From a candidate division FCPU426 bacterium (lineage in GTDB: Bacteria > Oederibacteriota > Muellerivitia > Muellerivitales > Muellerivitaceae): a stretch of 64,000 nt of DNA. The stretch lies in the NCBI GenBank assembly GCA_963847625.1, contig CAWKAR010000033.1:1-64000 (forward strand). Direction: 5' to 3'. Each line of letters starts with the position of its first letter. The first letter of the stretch is position 1. Positions 34,081 through 46,969 of the stretch are shown here, one piece after another. The notes beneath the pieces were generated by a model, which saw only the letters and a program-made list of their open reading frames with translations, was not told where the DNA came from and did no database searches. Made by a program: the position numbers and the translations under genes.

Positions 34081-34344
34081 TTATTCATAATGAGTCCACA
34101 TTCGCTCGACAAAGACCCTGTGATTTTTCTTATCGACTTGGTAAACCAAACGGTGTTGGAAATTGATGCGCCTTGAATAAAACCCTTCGAGTTCACCGAC
34201 CAGCTTTTCGTAGGGGGGATAGGGTGCAAAGGGATCTTTTTCCAGGATATCCAACAAATCATCAGCTTTTTTTTGAAGCCCCGAACGTTTCAATTTAACG
34301 GCGTCTTTCCGGGCGGCTTTGTTGAAAAAAAGCTGCCAAGTCAC
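34081..34344 (-). CDS. yoeB: Txe/YoeB family toxin
   Basis: EKLVGELEGFYSRRINFQHRLVY..WTHYE. Confidence 0.92.
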   Translation of the reverse strand: MTWQLFFNKAARKDAVKLKRSGLQKKADDLLDILEKDPFAPYPPYEKLVGELEGFYSRRINFQHRLVYQVDKKNHRVFVERMWTHYE

Positions 34345-34583
34345 CAGGGGCGCTTTTTGGAATAGGATTTAAGGGGGGATTTTTTGGCCTTGAGCAGTGA
34401 TTCCTTCATTCCCGGGACGCTCAAGAGATGGAGGGTTTCCTGCATGGCGCGAAAATCATCCTCCGAGATCAATACGCCGTTTTGACGGCGGCCGGTGATC
34501 TGGATGGGTTCATGGGATTGGGCGGCCTGGTCCAGGAGCTTGAATAGGTTGGCCCTTGCTTGGGTTGCGGTTAATGTGGTCAT
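34341..34583 (-). CDS. yefM: Phd/YefM antitoxin
   Basis: TATQARANLFKLLD..I.IT..VLISE..QETLHLL. Confidence 0.92.
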   Translation of the reverse strand: MTTLTATQARANLFKLLDQAAQSHEPIQITGRRQNGVLISEDDFRAMQETLHLLSVPGMKESLLKAKKSPLKSYSKKRPW

Positions 34584-34680: not shown

Positions 34681-34785
34681 AGGATCGAGGGCGGCCTTCA
34701 AGTCGGGAGGCAATTCTTCGAGGACTTCCGAGATAACCCGGTCTAAAAGACCTTTGCCCCTTTGTTTCTTTTCACGCTCGGACAT
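34681..34785 (-). pseudogene. Truncated second 5' end of the metallopeptidase gene
   Basis: MSEREKK..VISEVLEELPPDLKAAL versus MAKQEKN..VIAETLEGLPPDLKAAL. Confidence 0.75.
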
Positions 34786-34821
34786 GATACCCCCGCGGGA
34801 GCAAAGTGAACCGGGTTTTTG

Positions 34822-35706
34822 TCAGAGCAGGGAATAAGCGAAGCCGATCCCCAGGGTTTCCTTGATCTGCAATCCGCAATAAAACACCGGATCGTAACGG
34901 TAGTCGTTCTCGATGTTCAGGCTGATGATTTTGCTCAGGCTCACCGCCAGCAGGTTGTCCCATTCCGCCACGGTCTTGTCCAGGCCCCTGCCGTTCCAGA
35001 ACATGTCCAGCTTGGAGGTGAAATTGGAAATGGAGGACAATTTCCAATTCAACTCGGAAACCCAGCTCAAGCCCGTCTCGGTCAATTCATTCTGGACGGC
35101 CCCCGTGTCGGGGTTGACCGTGTAGATGTAATCGAACTTGTTGGCCACCGTCTCCTTGAAGGCGAAGCCCAGCCGGGTGTTGAAGGCGGGCCCGGGAATG
35201 TATTTCAAGCCGGCGCTTTCGGTGAAGTATCCCGGGTCCAGGAAACCCGAGGTCGACGGGGCGGGGGTCTTGGAATAGTCGTAGCCCGTGTCGAATTGGG
35301 ACTTGGCGGAAAGGGCCGCGAAGGGGTTCACCTGGGCCCAGGTCTTCCAGGAGTAAACGCTCTCCAGGTCGATGTTGTCCTCCGACTTGCGGGTGCCCAG
35401 GGTCTGCATGTAGGTCAACCCGTACTCCAGTTTCAGGGTGTTGAGCCAGTTGACGGAGGCGTTGTCGTGTTCCAGCTTGCAGTTCAAGTCGCCCTGCCAG
35501 GAAAAGAAGTTGTTCCCGCCCTGCCCCCAGTTGCTGAAGGACCCCTGGTTCAGGTTCAGGCTGGAAACCACCTGCTTCTTCCAGGCGTCCTGCTGGGAGA
35601 CCGGGGCGGTCGCCGCCGGGGTGGCCTCGGTCTTGGCATCGTCCGCCCAAAGGCGCAGGGGGATTGCCAGGCCTATTGCGATTAACACGAACATAAAGCG
35701 TTTCAT
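34822..35706 (-). CDS. DUF3078-like outer-membrane beta-barrel
   Basis: Signal peptide, NQGSFSNW.QGG, RKSED.IDL, terminal GIGFAYSLL; AGGAG RBS before ATG 35706. Confidence 0.85.
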   Translation of the reverse strand: MKRFMFVLIAIGLAIPLRLWADDAKTEATPAATAPVSQQDAWKKQVVSSLNLNQGSFSNWGQGGNNFFSWQGDLNCKLEHDNASVNWLNTLKLEYGLTYMQTLGTRKSEDNIDLESVYSWKTWAQVNPFAALSAKSQFDTGYDYSKTPAPSTSGFLDPGYFTESAGLKYIPGPAFNTRLGFAFKETVANKFDYIYTVNPDTGAVQNELTETGLSWVSELNWKLSSISNFTSKLDMFWNGRGLDKTVAEWDNLLAVSLSKIISLNIENDYRYDPVFYCGLQIKETLGIGFAYSLL

Positions 35707-35844
35707 AAGGGCTCCTTGGTTTGGGAATGGCCTCTGGTAAAAGCGGTATGATTCTAACATTAAGCAAGTTCTTTGGGCTATTAGCCGATTCTGGGTCCCA
35801 CAGTTTTACCCGTGGATATCTATAAAATTGATGGATAGTTATCC

Positions 35845-36159
35845 GCGACAGAGGGCCCCTTTGGATAAGGTGCTTAGAAATCTCGAAATTAGTTTGAATT
35901 TGGATCGATCAACGGGATAAGGTTGGTTTTTGGTTTGAGGTGTTTGGGCGGGCTTAAAGTGATGAATGTTGGCCAGGCACCTTTGTTTGCGACAGAGGGC
36001 CCCTTTGGATAAGGTGCTAAGAAATCTCGAAATTAGTTTGAGTTTGAATCGAACATCGGGGGAAGGTAGGTTTTTTGGCTTGAAGTTGTTGGGGCGGGCT
36101 TAAAGTGATGAATGTTCACTGCCACCCGCTGCGGTGCGGGGGGCCAGGCACCTTTGTTT
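35845..36159 (+). repeat. Diverged tandem duplication, period 144 bp; the second copy has 25 extra bp of hairpin
   Basis: GCGACAGAGGGCCCCTTTGGATAAGGTGCT at 35845 and 35989; both copies end GGCCAGGCACCTTTGTTTG. Confidence 0.9.
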
Positions 36160-36657
36160 GTTAGATTTTTAGGGTATTTTTTTCAAATATTTAACTACAT
36201 TATCCAACAGGTCCATCATTGTTGAACCAAAAAAATCCTCAGCAATAACTGGCAATTGCGTGAGCATAACACCCGGATCAGAGTTTAAAATCATATTAGG
36301 AATTGTTGCGTTTCTCCCTTGATACAGCGCACCCGCTAAATAGCTGATACTATCGCGAAAACTTTCTGGATAAGAATCCGTCCGCCCAATCAATAGTTGT
36401 GAAGAATTTTTCATTTTTCCAACCTTTTCAAACTCTTCTGCCAAATATTTTCTGGCTAAATCGAATCTATTAATAAAAATATTTCTTTGCACATCGGGGA
36501 TTAAAGGAGATTTGAACACCATTGTTTTAATTAGCGACAAAAAACAAGCTGTGGTTTCAAAAAGAAGAATATCATTCGAGATTTCTCCAAGGCATGTTTC
36601 GAATTTCTTCGCTGAGCTTATATAAATTAAAAATTCAAAAGCTGATTTCTGAGAGTG

Positions 36658-37710
36658 CCGAATTCACGGAGTAAGTGCAACACTTCGCCGGAAGACTTCC
36701 GCCGGAGTTTTAAAGCCCAAACATTTCCTGGGCCTGTTATTGAGCCATCTTTCTATGGTCCTGAATTCTTTGAAGGACACTTTAGCAAGATCAGTCTTTT
36801 TAGGCAAATGGCGGCGGACAAGACCGATAGTATTTTCCACCGTACCTTTTTCCCAACTGTGGAAAGGGGCGCAGAAAAAGGATTTTGTACCAAGCACGTG
36901 GTTGGTTTCCAAGTGGTTGGTGTTTTCGGTTCCGTTGTCATAGGTCAGACTCAGGCGGGCGTCTTGAGGGAAGCGGCATAAAGCGCGGTTGAGGCTATGA
37001 CTCATTTGGCGAGCGGTCTTTCGTTTGAGCTTTCCCAACTTGGAAAAACGGCTTTGACGCTCGACGAGAGCCCGCATAGCCACTTTACTCTGACGAGAGA
37101 CCATGGTGTCGGTTTCCCAATGGCCGAATTGCTTGCGTTGATTGGCGATCTCGGAGCGCTTATCGATGGAAACACGGCCTGGGATATGGTTTTTGGCGTG
37201 CTTACGGCTATGGCCAAATGAGAATCGTCGCCGGTGGTGTCGAACTAGGCAAGGAATCAGCTCAGTGGCTTCAGCATAAACCCACTGATAGATAGCTTCA
37301 GGACCAATGGTTTGCTTAGGCCGTAGGTGACCTAATCGACCTGAAATGAGTTCTGGAGACCAGCCTCGTTTCAATTGACGACGGACGTAGGCACGAATTC
37401 GTTTTGTTTTCAGGCGTAAACGGCGTGCTCGTTGTTGGTTGCGGTCAACATACCGTTGATGGGCTCGATGAGAAAGATAATAACCAGAACGGATAGGGGG
37501 AGCATTGCGCTTGAGTTCCCTGGAGAGGGTGGAAGGAGACCTCTTCAAGGCGCGTGAAATTGCTCGAAGGCTAAGACCCTTTCCTTTCAAGACGGATAAA
37601 TGATCTCTTTCTTCAACGCTTAAATGCTTGTATTTCTTTTTCATAGCCGCATATCCTATTCATGCGGCCTTCTTCAGACACTAAGTGTTGCACTTACTTA
37701 TGGAACTCGG
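36658..37710 (-). mobile_element. IS30-family element
   Basis: 28-bp imperfect IRs CCGARTTC-N4-AGTAAGTGCAACACTT around a transposase. Confidence 0.93.
36664..37644 (-). CDS. IS30 transposase
   Basis: N-terminal HTH, GHWETDT, TYDNGTE, WEKGTVEN, LNNRPRKCL. Confidence 0.95.
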   Translation of the reverse strand: MKKKYKHLSVEERDHLSVLKGKGLSLRAISRALKRSPSTLSRELKRNAPPIRSGYYLSHRAHQRYVDRNQQRARRLRLKTKRIRAYVRRQLKRGWSPELISGRLGHLRPKQTIGPEAIYQWVYAEATELIPCLVRHHRRRFSFGHSRKHAKNHIPGRVSIDKRSEIANQRKQFGHWETDTMVSRQSKVAMRALVERQSRFSKLGKLKRKTARQMSHSLNRALCRFPQDARLSLTYDNGTENTNHLETNHVLGTKSFFCAPFHSWEKGTVENTIGLVRRHLPKKTDLAKVSFKEFRTIERWLNNRPRKCLGFKTPAEVFRRSVALTP

Positions 37711-37819
37711 GTTCACTATAACACCCCCAAACAATAGTTCTATAAAGAGCTAAGCAATGGAAAAACGTACTCCTTGTTCTCAATCAGGTGAATATTATCC
37801 GATCGGACCTAAATAAATT

Positions 37820-38392
37820 TTATAAAATTATCCCACCTCTTTCCTCGACCTTAAAACGTTTCAAAGCCTCTCGCGCTGTATTCTTTGAGTTATATATCTC
37901 ATTTCCAAGTCCTAAAAATATTTTCTTATATCCTTCATCCTTAAGAAATTCCGGGTGTTCTATAAACAACCAAACATTAAATATTTTTAATTGATGCGAT
38001 AATTTTCCTCCTAACATCAAAAACATTTGAATGGCATCAAATAGATAAATCTCAGTAATATTTAATGGAAATTCTAATTTTTTATCCCCATCTTTATTTG
38101 CGTGTTTGAAAAAATTTTGATGGGCATTGATAGCATCTAGCAATACCTTGCGGTATTCAGGACGGATTCTATCAGAATCTTTTATTAGGCTATGAATACC
38201 TTTCTTTTTACCAAGATCATGAAGTATTCCGTGCGCCGCTCCAACAAGTGTGTGGATTGATACTTCATTACCATCATTGAAAAATAATTCGATGGCTGTT
38301 TCTAATTGTTGATACGCCGCATCCATTTTGCTAATAATTGATTTCGGATGTCTTACATCTTTAATATCCTTATTTTCATCAGGGATATTCAA
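37820..38392 (-). CDS. AT-rich hypothetical protein
   Basis: GGAGG RBS before TTG 38392; SK.DAA..QL.TAI.LFF and NFFKHA motifs. Confidence 0.75.
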   Translation of the reverse strand: MNIPDENKDIKDVRHPKSIISKMDAAYQQLETAIELFFNDGNEVSIHTLVGAAHGILHDLGKKKGIHSLIKDSDRIRPEYRKVLLDAINAHQNFFKHANKDGDKKLEFPLNITEIYLFDAIQMFLMLGGKLSHQLKIFNVWLFIEHPEFLKDEGYKKIFLGLGNEIYNSKNTAREALKRFKVEERGGIIL

Positions 38393-38416
38393 AACATCCT
38401 CCGCTTTAATAAAAGT

Positions 38417-38471
38417 AAGGGTCAGGCCACCCGCGCTGCAGCGGGTGGCAGGGAACATTCATTGCTTTAAG
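38417..38471. repeat. REP-like hairpin repeat; other copies at 36099-36154 (inverted) and 40530-40585
   Basis: GGGTCAGGCCACCCGC-gctgca-GCGGGTGGCAG-(G/TT)GAAYATTCA conserved among copies. Confidence 0.8.
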
Positions 38472-38614
38472 TCTTTAAGTCATTCGGGGTCTTGCAACAA
38501 ACCTGGGGCCTTGATAGCCGTTTAATCGAGCCTATCTTCTTTCAGGATGTTGAGAAGGTAAACCGCGCCGGCAACATTTTCAAAAATAATATATTTTTCC
38601 TTTAGCAAATTTCT

Positions 38615-38995
38615 TCAGTTTACCCAACTTCCCGGATATAGAAACCTATTTAAAACTCCATTAAAAATATATAAAATTATCCAAACAATCCCCACTAACA
38701 ACCAAAGCAATAATTTTGGCCGATTTCTTTCCCACGCAATTAAAAACAACCAGACCAAATTAACAAAAAACATCGGTATAAGTATTAGAAGTGTCAAAGC
38801 TCCTCCCATAAAATTTTCACCAGTCGTCATCATCCACGCCTGGCCACCACCAAATACTTCAACTTTCATGGGATGAATATTTCGGAAAACAATGAAAACA
38901 CCTATTAACCCAATAAAATTAACAATAAGCCATGACAAGGATTTCTTTGCTTCGGCGACCAACTCGCTTGAATCACATTTCAATGGTAATTTCAT
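38615..38995 (-). CDS. AT-rich small membrane protein (about 3 TM)
   Basis: Hydrophobic segments; AAGGA RBS. Confidence 0.65.
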   Translation of the reverse strand: MKLPLKCDSSELVAEAKKSLSWLIVNFIGLIGVFIVFRNIHPMKVEVFGGGQAWMMTTGENFMGGALTLLILIPMFFVNLVWLFLIAWERNRPKLLLWLLVGIVWIILYIFNGVLNRFLYPGSWVN

Positions 38996-39127
38996 TTTTC
39001 ATTCCTTGGAAAAAAGATAGCATGTATGGGCCAGCAACCTACGTAGTAGCTTTGATCAATAGTAGCTGATCAAAATAACGCGGGTTGCTCCTGGTAAGGA
39101 GCCTATCCGCATACGGAGGGCTGACCC

Positions 39128-40234
39128 ATGGGAAATAATAGCACGGTGGTAGGGCTGGATGTTCATAAGGAAACGATCACGATTGCAGTTTTAAGGCCCG
39201 ACAAGGATCGTCCTGATCCCTCGGTTACGGTTGAAAATCAGCCATCAATCATTGAAAAGAAAGTACGGGAACTTAATCGCCGCCATGCCCCACTGGAATT
39301 CGTTTATGAGGCTGGGCCTGGGGGATTTGCTTTGTATAGGCAGATTACCCAATTGGGACACCCTTGTGCGGTGATTGCGCCCGCATGGATGCCGATGAAA
39401 CCTGGGGACCGAGTCAAGACGGACCGAAAGGACGCAGAAAAGCTGTCTTGGTATTGGCGCATGAGGGATTTGAAAGAAGTCCGGGTACCCACGCCCGAAG
39501 AAGAATCCGTGAGGGATTTGCTGCGTGTCCGGGAAGATGTTCTCGCAAACCAGTTGAGAGCCCGTCATCGGTTATTGAAATTCCTGCTTAGGCAAGGCCG
39601 GATTTATCGGGGTGGCAAACACTGGACCCAAGCCCATAGGGAATGGTTGAGACACCAGAAGTTTGAGCTGCCAAATCTCGTAAAGACCTATGAAGCGAAT
39701 TACCGAATTTTGGCTGAGATTGACGTGCACTTGGCTGATTTGAATTGTGAAGTTGAATTGCTGGCACAAGACGAGAAATATCGAATTGCTGTCAGCTATT
39801 TGAAATGCCTGAAAGGCGTTAACACACTCACGGCCATGACTTTATTAGCAGAAAGCGGAGATTTCAGGCGGTTTAAAAACGCCCGCAGTTATATGCGATA
39901 TACGGGAATGGTCAGTTGGGAAGACAGCACCGGAAGCCATGTTTACCGGGGCGGGATTGTCAAATCCGGAAATGCCCATTTGAGGCGAGTGCTAGTCCAA
40001 GGGGCATGGACCTATCAGCTACGAAGCCTTGGGAGTCCAACACTCGCTAAACGGAGAAAAGGTTGTCCCCCGGAAGTTATACATTTAGCACGAAAAGCTG
40101 ATGAACGTTTGCATTTGAAGTTTCGGCGGATGGTAAGCCGAAACAAACGGTCTCAGGTGGCGGTAGTGGCCATCGCACGGGAATTGGCTGGCTTTATCTG
40201 GGCGATTGGACAGATGATCCCATCCGATCAGTAA
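39128..40234 (+). CDS. IS110 DEDD recombinase
   Basis: GLDVHK, YEAG, KTDRKDA; Tnp20 region with EDSTG and K.GN.HLR. Confidence 0.95.
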   Translation: MGNNSTVVGLDVHKETITIAVLRPDKDRPDPSVTVENQPSIIEKKVRELNRRHAPLEFVYEAGPGGFALYRQITQLGHPCAVIAPAWMPMKPGDRVKTDRKDAEKLSWYWRMRDLKEVRVPTPEEESVRDLLRVREDVLANQLRARHRLLKFLLRQGRIYRGGKHWTQAHREWLRHQKFELPNLVKTYEANYRILAEIDVHLADLNCEVELLAQDEKYRIAVSYLKCLKGVNTLTAMTLLAESGDFRRFKNARSYMRYTGMVSWEDSTGSHVYRGGIVKSGNAHLRRVLVQGAWTYQLRSLGSPTLAKRRKGCPPEVIHLARKADERLHLKFRRMVSRNKRSQVAVVAIARELAGFIWAIGQMIPSDQ

Positions 40235-40262
40235 TAGATCCGATGAGAAGAAAAAGAAGGAC

Positions 40263-40464
40263 GAGCTCTGATTTCAGGAGCGTGGCGCGGCACGGAGAAC
40301 CCTCGACGACCCCTTGTGCAATGAAGTCTTATTTCATGACGCACGGACAAAGATCGAGGCAGCTCCCGACGACAGGTCATCATGCGTCCCTGCCCTTTGG
40401 GGTAATACGCGAATATCAGTTTGATCAACCGTCGGAAATGGCTACGCTCTTGGAATCAGGGCTC
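40263..40464 (+). ncRNA. Predicted bridge/seekRNA of the IS110 element
   Basis: 21-bp closing stem (40263-83/40444-64) around two internal-loop hairpins whose loop strands match the target and donor junctions. Confidence 0.8.
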
Positions 40465-40737
40465 TGTCGTGCTGGTCCGTGAAAAGACCAACACCCTAGA
40501 ATCTGAAGGTTGACTGGCCCATACATATCAGGGGTCAGGCCATCCGCTCCGCAGCGTGTGGCAGTTGAATATTCAACATTTTATTAATTGAACCTAACTT
40601 CTTACAGTTTATTGTTGAGCCTTTAAACCGCACCAACCCCGTAAGCGTCAACGCGGGGCCGTAGGCGCTGGCGTGGCTGGGACATTCTGGGCGGCTTGTT
40701 CCTGGGGGGTGGCCTCCATCCCGGCCGGCTCGCCCCC

Positions 40738-41424
40738 TCACATGTGGTGGACTACCACGCAGGCCACCTTGCCGATAAGCCAAAAGAAAGCCACAACGAC
40801 GAAAAGTTGAAACAAGAACGTAAATCCTGCGATCAGCGCTTTCCTGGTCTTCAGACCCAATTCAGCGGCATGACTTAAACTGCGCTGTTCCGGTGTTAAG
40901 CCTCCCTCATTTTTACCTGGAGCCCCTGATTCACCACTCCCCACCTGTCCCGGGCTTTGTCGAGGAGCCTGCCCCGAGCTTAGTCGAGGGGTTATTTTTT
41001 TGTCCGACCGCGTCTTTCTTTTGATCCGGGAGGGATCAAAATCCTTGGCCGGTTTTCCGCTTAAAATATGGTCCACGAGACCCATGATTTTCCTGGTTTT
41101 TAAACGGTGGGCGAGAACCATATCCAAAGCCTCATGGAATACCCTGCGAAAGTCATCCACCCGGCCTATCAATCCCGCCAGGGCAAGGGCGCATCTGGAG
41201 GAGAGTTTATAGCTGGGCGTGCCCTTGGCCGCCCTGCGGACTTTATCGATTGCCGGTGGGTCGAAACAGTTTTTAAGGTTTAGAAGGTCCGTGATTTGGC
41301 TGTCACTTAGTTTCAAGGCTTGTTTCAGTTCAGGCCTTGGAGCGGAGTAGCGTCCTTTAAGTTGGGCATTCAAGTCCGCAACCTGTTTGAGCCATTTCAT
41401 GGGGTCTTTTTTAGATTCAGGCAT
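40738..41424 (-). CDS. ParB-like HTH DNA-binding-domain protein with C-terminal transmembrane helix
   Basis: AAAGGAG RBS; ELKQALKLSDSQITDLLNL, LSSRCALALAGL and MVLAHRLKTRKIMGLV follow the ParB DBD helix pattern; hydrophobic C-terminus. Confidence 0.65.
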   Translation of the reverse strand: MPESKKDPMKWLKQVADLNAQLKGRYSAPRPELKQALKLSDSQITDLLNLKNCFDPPAIDKVRRAAKGTPSYKLSSRCALALAGLIGRVDDFRRVFHEALDMVLAHRLKTRKIMGLVDHILSGKPAKDFDPSRIKRKTRSDKKITPRLSSGQAPRQSPGQVGSGESGAPGKNEGGLTPEQRSLSHAAELGLKTRKALIAGFTFLFQLFVVVAFFWLIGKVACVVVHHM

Positions 41425-41564
41425 ATATGACTCCTTTGAAATATATTTAACCGCCTATGCCGCTGTGGCAAGGTCACAAACCGGGTCACATAAATCGATG
41501 TTTTTTATCGCCCTTGGGCCGAAGGCCCAACGGGTGTGTGTGTTGATACACATAAAGGCACCAA

Positions 41565-42126
41565 TGCCGACGGGTGTCACCGGAAATGTGGGCAGTTTAT
41601 CTCCCCCTGCCGGTAGATGACACCGGGTATGAGGGCAGTTTATCCTCCCTTTCCGACGGGTGCCGACGGAAATGTGGGCAGTTTATCTCCCATACCGGCA
41701 GATGTTACTGGGAATATGGGCAGTTTATCTCCCCCTGCCGGTAAATGACACCGGGAATGTGGGCAGTTTATCCTCCCTACCGGCAGATGTTACCGGGTTT
41801 GTGGGCAGTTTATCTCCCCTGCCGGGAGATGTTACCGGGTTTGTGGGCAGTTTATCTCTCCCTGCCGGCAGATGTTACCGGGAATGTGGGCAGTTTATCC
41901 TCCCTTGCCGGCAGATGTTTACCGGGAATGTGGGCACTTTATCTCCCTTTGCCGGTAAATGACACTAGGAATGTGGGCAGTTTATCCCCCTTACCGGCAG
42001 ATGTTTACCGGGAATGTGGGCACTTTATCTCCCTTTGCCGGTAAATGACACTAGGTATGTGGGCAGTTTATCCCCCTGCCGGCAGATGTTTACCGGGAAT
42101 GTGGGCAGTTTATCTCCCCTGCCGGC
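41565..42126. repeat. Non-coding tandem array of 13 x 42-44 bp
   Basis: Core GGGCA(G/C)TTTATC at 41590, 41633, 41676, 41718, 41761, 41803, 41845, 41888, 41932, 41975, 42018, 42061, 42103. Confidence 0.95.
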
Positions 42127-42139
42127 ATGGTCCATAAGC

Positions 42140-44324: not shown

Positions 44325-44735
44325 TTAATGAACTCCGCGCAATACTTCCAGGAAATCAGCCGGTGACAAAACCCGCACCTTGCCAGCAGCGTTTTGGGGA
44401 AAATCCTTCTTGTTGCCGGTCACTAGATAGTCGGCTTCCGCACCCAAGGCGACTTCCAGGAAGGCTTCGTCGGTTTTATCCGGCAGGCGCTTACTCAAGG
44501 GAAGGGCCGGGGTAATAAGACCCCTGGCTTCGATGATGGAGAGAAGGTGGCTTGTTTCGGACGGATTAAAGCCGAATTTCGGCCGGGCCAACACCTCCTG
44601 GTATTCCAGGAGGATCCTGGCGTCGAAGCAAACCCGGAAATGTTTGGCCACCGCCATTTGGAGAATGGTTCCGGAAGGGCCCTCCGGCTTCAGCAACCCG
44701 GATACCAGGATGTTGGTGTCGAGGACGACCTTCAT
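44325..44735 (-). CDS. PIN-domain toxin
   Basis: VVLDTNILVS, D..FL..A...ADYLVTGN.KDF. Confidence 0.9.
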   Translation of the reverse strand: MKVVLDTNILVSGLLKPEGPSGTILQMAVAKHFRVCFDARILLEYQEVLARPKFGFNPSETSHLLSIIEARGLITPALPLSKRLPDKTDEAFLEVALGAEADYLVTGNKKDFPQNAAGKVRVLSPADFLEVLRGVH

Positions 44736-45019
44736 CCGCGGAGATTCCGCCGGACCTTGCGGATTTCGTGCTGGATTTCAAGGTCCGTCATCTTCGACCT
44801 TCCGGATTCCACCGAGGCTTTCTGGATTTTTACCACGGCGCGCAAGGCCCGCAATTCCCGGGCCTGGTCCAGGCGCTCCTCAAGGCTCTGCTCGTCGGCG
44901 GAGGTCAGGATGGCAACGGGTTTCCCGTTGTTGGTGACGACCAGATCGGTTTCCTTTTTCAGGTCTTTCCAGACCTTGGAAGGGCGCGTTCTTAATTCGC
45001 GGATGGTGATCATTTTCAT
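44732..45019 (-). CDS. Phd-like antitoxin
   Basis: ITIRELR..VVTNNGKPVAIL; overlaps the toxin start. Confidence 0.88.
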   Translation of the reverse strand: MKMITIRELRTRPSKVWKDLKKETDLVVTNNGKPVAILTSADEQSLEERLDQARELRALRAVVKIQKASVESGRSKMTDLEIQHEIRKVRRNLRG

Positions 45020-45373: not shown

Positions 45374-46969
45374 ATGAAGCCCGAACATACCTGTGTTAAC
45401 CATCCGGGAGCGGAAATTGTCAGTTTCTGTCACCATTGCTACGACCGGCTCTGCAAAGATTGTGTTACAGAAGGTCCCGAACATTATTACTGCCGTAAAC
45501 CGGAATGCCTTAAAGCACTTGAAAGTGAAAAAATTTTTGCAACCCAAGAAAAATCCGAAAAACTAAATACCATCACCAGAAAAACCAAACCCAAAATCCG
45601 AACCTATGGGTATTCTTTTATTTGGACGGTTATCCTGTTGGCGATATATTTGGGTCTCTATTATATCCCGCTCCCAACTATTGGTTTTGCGAACCAATTG
45701 CCCCAATCAAAAGGCACAAATTTATCCGAATTTAATATTTTATCAATGGGTTGGATGCCAGTAGTTTCCGGTTTTATTTGGGTGGAGATTATTTCCCTTT
45801 TTTTAAAACCATTTCGCGGCTGGCGACTGGCGGGGATAACTGGAAGGGAAAAGCTCAATCAATGTGCCTGGGGTTTGTCATTTTTATTCGCTTTATTTCA
45901 GTCATTTGGAACCAATCACCTTGTTTTAGAAATTATGCATGAAAATATACCGTCTTTTTCTCCCCCAAATCCCTTACTCTTTCAAGTCCTTAATATTGTT
46001 TCATTAATGGGTGGGACATTTCTATGCGTGTGGATCGCCAGACTTATTACCCAAATTGGCGTGGGGAACGGATTCCTAATTATTTTTCTTTACGGCTGGA
46101 TCAAAAGTGTTCTCAATAATATTTTGCTTTCTTTTAATGATTTCCGAAAATTAAACCCAACAAGCAATGAGTTGTTTAGATTCTTTATGTTGATCATATT
46201 GATGTTAATTGCCCTTGTTTTTCTTTGGAAATTTATCCAAAAAGGGCCAAGGATTCCGGTAAAAATGGCTAATGGCAAAAGACTATGGTTTGAAATTTCC
46301 CCTTTGCCTATGAGTGTGGGTGTTTACATTTGGTCCCTTTCGATTATTTCAATTTGCACAATATTTCTTATCTATTTTAGGGCATATGGTGATGAACGAC
46401 TTTCGAATCTAATTTCAATGATGAAAGATGGTTGGTTACACATCGTCCTACTATGCATTTTATTGGCACTTTTTAGCTGGGTGTTTTACAACCTGTTTTA
46501 CAGCGAGATTGATGTTTTTGGAATTGGTATAGAAAACCTTCCGGGGCGCCTTCGAAAAAGGGAGATGATCTTAGATCACCAATTTTGGAAGGCTTTGGCT
46601 GTTCTTTTGGCCGGCACTATTCTTTTCAAGCTTCCGATTTGTTTTAATACGGGCTCTGATATGCGTATGGGAGATTTGATATTTTTCGTTCAAGCGTTCG
46701 TCGTGATTCAGGATATTTTGGCACAAATGAAATTTTGTAGGATTCATGGTCAAGGTGTGGAATTGTTGGAATTGGACAATGTACATTTAGCTAGTTACTT
46801 AAAGGGGCTTTTCCAAGTGGAAAAAATCCCCTGTCACATACAAGCCTATGGTTATCGTCGTCTCATGTTTATGTTTTCGCCTTTGTACAAGATGCGGCTG
46901 CTTGTTCCAGAGGAAGAAATCGATAGATCCAAAGTTCTTCTCTCGACAATCGATTTTAAGGTGGTTTGA
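45374..46969 (+). CDS. B-box zinc finger + SecY-like membrane domain + DUF2007-like C-terminal domain
   Basis: CVNHP..CHHC...LCKDC; YIPLP, ILSMGWMP, GGTFLCVWIA..IT..GVGNG; C-terminal LASYLKG.F..EKIPC..MRLLVPEE. Confidence 0.7.
   Translation: MKPEHTCVNHPGAEIVSFCHHCYDRLCKDCVTEGPEHYYCRKPECLKALESEKIFATQEKSEKLNTITRKTKPKIRTYGYSFIWTVILLAIYLGLYYIPLPTIGFANQLPQSKGTNLSEFNILSMGWMPVVSGFIWVEIISLFLKPFRGWRLAGITGREKLNQCAWGLSFLFALFQSFGTNHLVLEIMHENIPSFSPPNPLLFQVLNIVSLMGGTFLCVWIARLITQIGVGNGFLIIFLYGWIKSVLNNILLSFNDFRKLNPTSNELFRFFMLIILMLIALVFLWKFIQKGPRIPVKMANGKRLWFEISPLPMSVGVYIWSLSIISICTIFLIYFRAYGDERLSNLISMMKDGWLHIVLLCILLALFSWVFYNLFYSEIDVFGIGIENLPGRLRKREMILDHQFWKALAVLLAGTILFKLPICFNTGSDMRMGDLIFFVQAFVVIQDILAQMKFCRIHGQGVELLELDNVHLASYLKGLFQVEKIPCHIQAYGYRRLMFMFSPLYKMRLLVPEEEIDRSKVLLSTIDFKVV

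Follow-up and report, generated by a model that had tools for sequence, protein, structure and literature searches.

The locus described here resembles SopB and sopC of plasmid F in joining a ParB-family DNA-binding domain to 43-bp tandem repeats adjacent to the gene; sopC is a ParB-family centromere of 12 repeats of 43 bp, a length equal to four helical turns (PMC3177203). SopB specificity involves a helix-turn-helix (HTH) and a second, non-HTH determinant (PMC3597684), and our protein may have a similar pair of elements. SopB, however, is a soluble CTPase clamp that acts with SopA on a perfect 16-bp palindrome, whereas the family reported here lacks the CTPase domain and ParA and has a transmembrane (TM) helix. 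Also unlike sopC, its arrays present imperfect-palindrome cores of ~10-13 bp about every 21.5 bp, with many specificities on one chromosome.

Other parallels concern the membrane. Noc contacts the membrane through an N-terminal amphipathic helix. It is derived from ParB, binds dispersed 16-bp chromosomal sites (NBS) and links DNA to the membrane through CTP-gated membrane binding (PMC8429893), whereas the present family has a C-terminal TM anchor, no CTP switch and phased arrays. RicO, which is paired with ricS in S. aureus (10.64898/2026.03.06.710092), and RocS (10.1101/359943) each join an N-terminal DNA-binding domain to a C-terminal anchor; both bridge DNA and membrane, and RicO is sequence-specific. 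RicO, compared by description, differs in its amphipathic anchor and origin-proximal sites, and the accessible part of its account describes neither tandem arrays nor a paralogue code.

Repeats upstream of the gene of their own reader are found with KfrA, an HTH protein that autoregulates through five direct repeats and has roles in plasmid stability (PMC7783346). KfrA and KorB are soluble, plasmid-borne and work with IncC/KorB, whereas the present family gave no plasmid or viral match. REP/BIME and REPIN-RAYT elements also form dispersed intergenic mosaics and are insertion-sequence targets (PMC3116915, PMC1525189). Our arrays, in contrast, are direct, co-oriented and helically phased, and their partner is a DNA-binding membrane protein and not a transposase. 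The units of REP and REPIN-RAYT elements are inverted palindromes with an associated Y1 transposase. CRISPR arrays have identical repeats and unique spacers, unlike the degenerate units found here, which lack unique spacers and gave no Rfam CRISPR match. The array spacing resembles that of 17-22-bp phased iterons beside a Rep initiator; no Rep structure is among the top fold matches listed, and there was no plasmid match, neither of which argues decisively against an iteron replicon. Regulators of the ToxR/CadC type comprise a cytoplasmic DNA-binding domain, a TM helix and an optional periplasmic domain. Their OmpR-type winged HTH differs from the ParB-type, all-helical model obtained here, which has no beta wing and is accompanied by long cognate arrays.

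By analogy, the system would act like Noc or RicO at the membrane and like sopC on DNA, with features outside any described family that we located. The main text of a survey of ParB-CTPase fusions (10.1101/2025.10.10.680097) contains neither "transmembrane" nor "PDZ" in its accessible part, and its supplements could list such fusions. We found no published description of a family of membrane ParB proteins with phased arrays in a search that covered mainly literature outside subscription journals. The reading that we favor, with a probability of roughly 55%, is that the proteins act as clamp-less, sequence-specific tethers between DNA and membrane, with the array doubling as an operator and the whole travelling with accessory DNA.

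The window, meaning the whole 64,000-nucleotide stretch of DNA that was analyzed, lies on contig C33 of the source genome (G000), and includes the following features.

34750..42135, no strand assigned: variable island capped by the array and gene (synteny is lost from the DUF255 stop codon, 42135, and regained at 34749)
40738..41424, minus strand: gene for a CTPase-less protein with a ParB-type DNA-binding domain and a TM helix, short form (open reading frame, translation, homologues, dN/dS)
40750..40839, minus strand: predicted TM helix region, residues 196-225, N-in (hydropathy 2.67, moment 0.12; modelled helix 193-227)
40849..41034, minus strand: basic, low-complexity linker, residues 131-192 (pLDDT 47-62 over residues ~141-200)
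41035..41403, minus strand: predicted ParB/KorB/Noc-type DNA-binding domain, residues 8-130 (AlphaFold2, Foldseek, VIA, sequence bridge)
41077..41112, minus strand: second co-varying helix, residues 105-116 (partial Mantel 0.168)
41275..41310, minus strand: predicted HTH recognition helix, residues 39-50 (LSDSQITDLLNL), which differs between paralogues in step with the array core
41425..41565, minus strand: leader with ribosome-binding site (41431-41437), which co-travels with array and gene
41565..42127, minus strand: phased array of 13 x 43 bp, putative binding sites and operator (TRF, profile, core positions)

The gene product, P0001, has 228 amino acids. Its DNA-binding domain begins at about residue 8, with the ribosome-binding site (AAAGGAG) just upstream, and there is no CTPase domain; the ParB_N family PF02195, like any other Pfam family, is unmatched in P0001. 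AlphaFold2 (62-row alignment) models residues ~10-130 as an all-helical domain (block pLDDT 87-98), ~140-192 as a disordered linker and 193-227 as a helix. This last helix is hydrophobic all round (best 19-amino-acid window 2.67, mean 2.31, moment 0.12) and is preceded by three K/R residues and followed by none. Since it is hydrophobic on every face, it is a TM helix, oriented N-in, rather than an amphipathic one. About three residues follow it, leaving no extracytoplasmic domain. The architecture described in the earlier note, namely a helical N-terminal domain, a basic linker and a hydrophobic C-terminal helix that anchors a clamp-less protein in the membrane, thus agrees with the model and with the hydropathy profile.

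A ParB/KorB/Noc-type fold, as the earlier note had suspected, is supported by two structural comparisons and by relatives of the protein. The top ten Foldseek matches of the model are all ParB, Noc or Spo0J proteins (probability 0.98-1.00, E 0.06-0.15), none of them at E<=0.001, and the SopB structures 3mkz and 3mkw are among the fold matches. VIA, which is independent of Foldseek, placed the ParB DNA-binding domain of 6s6h (Z 7.6, rmsd 4.7, 107 aligned residues), KorB (Z 7.2) and Spo0J (Z 7.2) at the top of its ranking, with scores under 8 and below the tool's secure level that make the fold match a moderate one. The ParB-type assignment rests more strongly on a sequence bridge to relatives that retain ParB_N (below). 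Pfam searches of 60 homologues gave nothing beyond PDZ and HTH traces below the cut-off, and a PDB sequence search with the family alignment gave noise only. An atlas comparison (best 0.80) had an HTH_ParB cluster among its matches, which serves as a lead only.

Homologues of P0001 number 77 at E<=0.001, P0001 included. Against its closest relative, codons 1-143 of the gene have a dN/dS of 0.25, indicating purifying selection, and the recognition helix is identical. The possibility that P0001 is a pseudogene cut by IS110 was rejected, as the insertion sequence lies ~200 bp beyond the stop codon, short forms recur and dN/dS is 0.25. No sigma-70 promoter match was found on the gene's strand.

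The array consists of degenerate, direct units that are head-to-tail and co-oriented. Each carries two alternating cores of ~10 bp, ACTGCCCACA and TCTGCCGGCA, about 20 and 23 bp apart. TRF places it at 41575-42127 (period 43, 13.0 copies, score 617), and the 13 cores recur at 42-44 bp. One edge lies 141-151 bp before the ATG (41424), in keeping with the 13 copies ~140 bp upstream reported in the earlier note, and the other lies 13 bp past the stop codon of the upstream DUF255/thioredoxin gene. In Rfam, nothing relevant matched the array; one lncRNA hit (E 0.64) falls outside it.

A profile of the array unit finds 127 units at 26 sites in G000 and none in the reversed genome, and the unit is thus far beyond chance. 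The earlier note took recurrence beside unrelated genes as a sign against the pairing; the same type does recur at these 26 sites beside unrelated genes, and the array is not private to this locus. This refutes the single-locus model, but not binding. We read the other copies as extra target sites or relics of cassette movement, because the copy linked to a gene invariably sits right upstream of it and accompanies the DNA-binding domain in swaps (below). Beyond what that note described, G000 has six further full paralogues and many more array copies. A gene-less 120-bp copy of the leader lies within a mosaic array on contig C38 of G000.

Proteins like P0001, which we call the CTPase-less class, were found at 41 loci in nine genomes of one uncultured bacterial family, that is, in 9 of the family's 31 genomes and in none of 68 other genomes of the phylum. 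Seven of them, P0001 and its six full paralogues, are in G000, which also encodes a separate canonical ParB. A partial eighth paralogue (C3:22629-24035), 2 kb from an intact one, keeps PH-like and PDZ domains and only the tail of the DNA-binding domain.

The pairing of gene and array suggested by the earlier note holds at all 41 CTPase-less loci, and at 4 of 4 new metagenome loci of two independent kinds. TRF detects upstream arrays at 22 of the first 25 loci, and the three without are the weakest matches. Helical-lag periodicity in the upstream 700 bp scores 0.54-1.0 at 39 of the 41; of the remaining two, one array is behind an inserted IS110 and the other is at a contig start. Values of at least 0.60 are reached by 34 of the 39 scorable loci versus 42 of 587 background upstream regions, and none of 30 downstream flanks exceeds 0.49. 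Upstream regions of CTPase-type relatives score at most 0.50 in 33 of 34 cases (the exception reaches 0.65, at lag 33), and all of 22 additional weak loci stay at or below 0.52.

Array periods in the clade are 21-22 or 42-43 bp, and each paralogue has its own core of ~10 bp. Core spacings correspond to two to six helical turns in 381 of 411 cases. In all 36 arrays compared, conservation is higher in cores than in spacers (0.92 versus 0.64), a contrast that is partly built in because cores were picked by their recurrence.

Co-occurrence might arise if arrays were simply inherited with the genes and not recognized by the proteins, and shared ancestry does give some similarity between protein and array (scaffold rho 0.128). 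However, the signal is concentrated in the recognition helix. Among 36 protein-array pairs (five fragmentary or duplicate rows dropped), identity over residues 39-50 correlates with core similarity (rho 0.254; partial Mantel 0.238, a test that leaves some kinship in), residues 105-116 follow at 0.168, and helix 2 is not correlated (0.027). The signal also survives the exclusion of close kin: without pairs over 55% identical and pairs from one genome, choosing the nearest neighbor by helix gives a better prediction of the core than choosing it by scaffold in 24 cases and a worse one in 11 (p=0.009). With close kin and same-genome pairs left out, the helix rho of 0.219 exceeds all 2000 random scaffold sets. 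The sisters L016 and L021 differ in both helix and core, and each matches non-sisters in both. We therefore regard inheritance without recognition as very improbable.

The core thus co-varies with the recognition helix rather than with the scaffold, also among distant relatives, as the earlier note had anticipated for a protein that binds its array. By eye and across genera, helices with xS[QH]IT accompany cores ending in GGCA, KSQV[SY] accompanies CGGAA and K[SAG]M[LV]S accompanies TAAAC; the four new metagenome loci fall outside these three classes. By analogy with SopB, the helix at residues 105-116 may be the counterpart of ParB's secondary, non-HTH binding motif, to judge from its position.

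A search with the family profile also finds a weaker class, in which ParB_N was detected in 23 of 30 scanned members (19 above the cut-off) and HTH_ParB in 2 of 30. The ParB_N domain sits directly before the matching DNA-binding domain, and similarity between the two classes extends through their membrane and C-terminal regions (BLAST to 1e-94). Prediction gives a TM helix to 35 of the 41 strong members and to 27 of 35 weak ones; several of the six CTPase-less proteins without one are fragments. In a 72-row tree, from which fragments and three frameshifted or broken rows were left out, the CTPase-less class forms one side of a branch at 99/95, with a bootstrap that is not fully settled and a separation that is partly built in since the classes were set by profile score. 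On this tree, CTPase loss with array gain appears to be a single evolutionary event and not a replicated correlation.

Members of the sister class (L062-L122 and L162-L188, for example L107, L111 and L116) combine ParB_N, the DNA-binding domain, a TM helix and the same extracytoplasmic domains. They occur several per genome, without arrays and without a ParA-binding motif, and are apparently integral-membrane ParB CTPases. The motif LG[RK]GL was found in none of 32 CTPase-type relatives, and P0001 has no N-terminal segment; no consistent upstream palindromes were found for the CTPase-type class. One protein, L255:2953-3702 (G001 C4:1322953), is an exception to the pattern of arrays without CTPase: it has 250 amino acids, ParB_N, a degenerate DNA-binding domain and, by eye, no obvious TM helix, and its gene begins 180 bp after a mosaic array.

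A long paralogue is modelled with a PH-like fold (Z 9.9) beyond the TM helix, followed by an HtrA/DegS-like PDZ domain (E 7.5e-5), and no protease domain was found in it. P0004 (residues 285-431) and P0008 have a different extracytoplasmic domain that is TraE/VirB8/DotI-like (atlas 0.85, lead only). Several short forms, P0001 included, persist without any such domain, and this suggests that the minimal function involves DNA and membrane.

The absence of an adjacent ParA gene, stated in the earlier note, extends to the family: no neighboring gene, parA included, is conserved across 47 loci, where neighbors most often encode transposases or secreted repeat proteins. Genes for ParA, an integrase or secretion were not found near these loci, and so no motor or mobilizing enzyme was identified. 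Scans of plasmid, viral and genome-contig collections, which may omit near genomes, gave no family match.

Arrays are not confined to the genes. Thirteen hand-defined site types form 48 clusters in G000 versus none in the control. Thirty-nine clusters have at least four sites; mosaics make up 21 of these 39, and 32 contain at least one type that has its gene in the genome. For 6 of the 13 types, no cognate gene was found in this 94%-complete assembly, in which four arrays run up to contig edges. Blocks within a mosaic share polarity, and phasing within blocks is 10.6-10.7 bp (R 0.77, n=493). Junctions between blocks keep the phase as well (R 0.44, n=141; with gaps of at least 25 bp, n=44 and p=3e-4), for which in-register recombination could be an alternative source. 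Strong genome-wide dispersal is seen only in this genus, and matches outside it are mostly gene-linked. Gene-less arrays outside the genus occur in G023, G011 and G019, with G011 having arrays and a gene fragment only; other genomes without genes have at most one pattern match. A KOPS-like polarity was rejected, as array strands are mixed along 1.6 Mb of genome G001.

Several smaller elements accompany the mosaics. A non-repeat module of ~75 bp with two hairpins lies within mosaics at G000 C28:121.3k, C50:80.7k and C60:57.8k and at G001 L094, and a module of ~110 bp ends two mosaic arrays; both are candidate recombination or end signals. Repeats with an 8-9-bp period (GGAACYTT-like) are often found beside phased arrays (G001 C4:263717, 428296, 598.5k and 1413.9k). 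The gene for a large serine recombinase ends directly at an array in G000 as well as in G001 (L152:4248-5366, G001 C4:258995-260815), the sole case among annotated loci.

It is possible, though we consider it doubtful, that the proteins are membrane-bound one-component regulators, with the array as an operator for gene and cargo, the extracytoplasmic PH-like/PDZ or VirB8-like module sensing a signal from the envelope, and tethering incidental. Arrays are always directly upstream of and co-oriented with their gene, and at 24 of 35 loci the gene that follows an array on its 3' side shares its strand. KfrA is autoregulated by way of five direct repeats (PMC7783346), and the HtrA/DegS-like PDZ of the long forms comes with no protease domain. 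However, the genes flanking arrays are unrelated (tgt, recQ, xseA, kdpC, gcvP, tatD, cstA, GH43/44, hsdR and Fic, from 69 of 143 candidate ORFs scanned). Gaps that contain arrays comprise 16 tandem, 12 divergent and 7 convergent cases versus 656, 261 and 147, a distribution without evident promoter bias. A sensor domain is missing from the short forms, and arrays of 200-1100 bp, in our judgement, far exceed a usual operator.

In 1.6 Mb of G001, we found 29 periodic loci, of which seven represent other repeat kinds and were set aside. Of the 22 arrays left, 17 are at synteny breaks with G000, versus 68 of 197 other gaps (p=1.4e-4), where fragmentation of G000 inflates breaks in both groups. Among the other five, three are collinear with an array in both genomes and two are in islands absent from G000; 12 of the 22 share an array-bearing flank with G000. 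Islands, as labelled by eye, carry restriction-modification, Fic, toxin-antitoxin, IS and lipoprotein genes and no consistent integrase.

Such enrichment could also reflect selfish gene-repeat pairs, whose recombinogenic, REP-like arrays would be propagated by ectopic recombination or by a transposase supplied in trans and whose protein would bind them to no gain for host or island. IS256, IS3 and IS110 lie inside or adjoin arrays, the family is patchy (9 of 31 genomes), orphan blocks and several broken copies exist, and the array as single-stranded DNA folds slightly better than shuffled sequences (z -2.3). Yet the protein has no catalytic domain, no Y1_Tnp/RAYT transposase was found in G019 despite its four genes with arrays, and no target-site duplication was seen by eye at two empty sites. 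The phase kept over block junctions also speaks against this account, and the conserved TM helix and extracytoplasmic domains would be left unexplained; we consider it unlikely. A RAYT link had separately been rejected: two of three Y1 genes in G000 are within 7 kb of an array, and none has repeats within 1.5 kb.

Comparison of paralogues indicates how the pairs diversify. In G001, the site after the DUF255 gene has a different paralogue, a different 43-bp array and different cargo, and the closest relative of P0001 is found at another site, where its array type and leader match those of P0001 within a single 74%-identical block. Same-genome pairs with C-terminal parts 65-82% identical and DNA-binding domains only 32-50% identical differ in their arrays, whereas P0001 and P0002 (83% versus 25%) have one array type in common. 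Ranking 325 pairs by C-terminal similarity relative to that of the DNA-binding domain puts ten same-genome pairs at the top, and the arrays differ in every one of them. These computational comparisons show a pattern best described as the array and DNA-binding domain being swapped among paralogues as one cassette.

The variable island in the window also contains an IS110-family transposase gene (39128-40234, plus strand), a second transposase gene (36664-37644, minus strand) that we take to be IS30-like, and a two-copy 144-bp direct repeat (35845-36131) that is also matched in G001 beside the locus of the closest relative. Apparent toxin-antitoxin pairs flank the island on both sides, one of the Phd/YefM-PIN kind (44325-45019) and one presumably Phd/YoeB-like (34081-34583). 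Farther out, in a low-GC stretch, 45374-46969 (plus strand) encodes an unusual SecY paralogue of 531 amino acids, whose membrane region is SecY-like (E 5.7e-20) and whose N- and C-terminal parts resemble a B-box zinc finger and DUF2007, respectively.

In the proposed tether, the C-terminal helix would hold the protein in the inner membrane while the flexible linker presents the ParB-type domain, which would read a core of ~10-13 bp. Because cores recur every two helical turns, many membrane-bound copies could engage the DNA from one side and retain the locus by avidity, which would replace the CTP sliding clamp still present in the sister proteins. Given its position immediately ahead of the gene, the array is probably an operator for autorepression too, by analogy with the KfrA repeats. 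Recombination of the cassette among paralogues would yield non-interfering specificities, and blocks left or copied at variable sites would build in-phase mosaics that provide extra anchoring points in this genus. The tether's purpose is the weakest step, as no motor or transfer machinery is linked to it; we infer a benefit to DNA inheritance or transfer.

A more elaborate version, which we put forward tentatively, is a combinatorial code for anchoring the chromosome to the membrane, in which membrane-bound ParB derivatives with programmable specificities act on in-phase mosaics at about 40 sites per genome. Mixed lattices would fix accessory regions at the envelope, and PH-PDZ or VirB8-like outer modules would couple them to envelope structures, possibly sites of DNA transfer, which would explain why arrays mark hot spots of rearrangement and cargo. 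The CTPase-bearing sisters would then be integral-membrane ParB clamps, a kind of protein for which we came across no description, and in the CTPase-less clade the clamp would be replaced by phased avidity.

The idea that chromosomes attach directly to the membrane is an old one, for which there are few molecular examples; those that we found with sequence specificity, Noc and RicO, use amphipathic helices. Our analysis suggests that membrane-embedded ParB relatives with matched arrays are an undescribed way of tying DNA sites to the membrane. The two natural states of an integral-membrane ParB, a clamp without an array and an array without a clamp, make the replacement of CTP-dependent sliding by phased multivalency testable. 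The mosaics are apparently bacterial interspersed repeats of an undescribed class, linked to genome plasticity. The roughly 40 helix-core pairs found in nature provide a map of how ParB-type specificity changes, and might be a source of orthogonal parts for labelling or tethering DNA.
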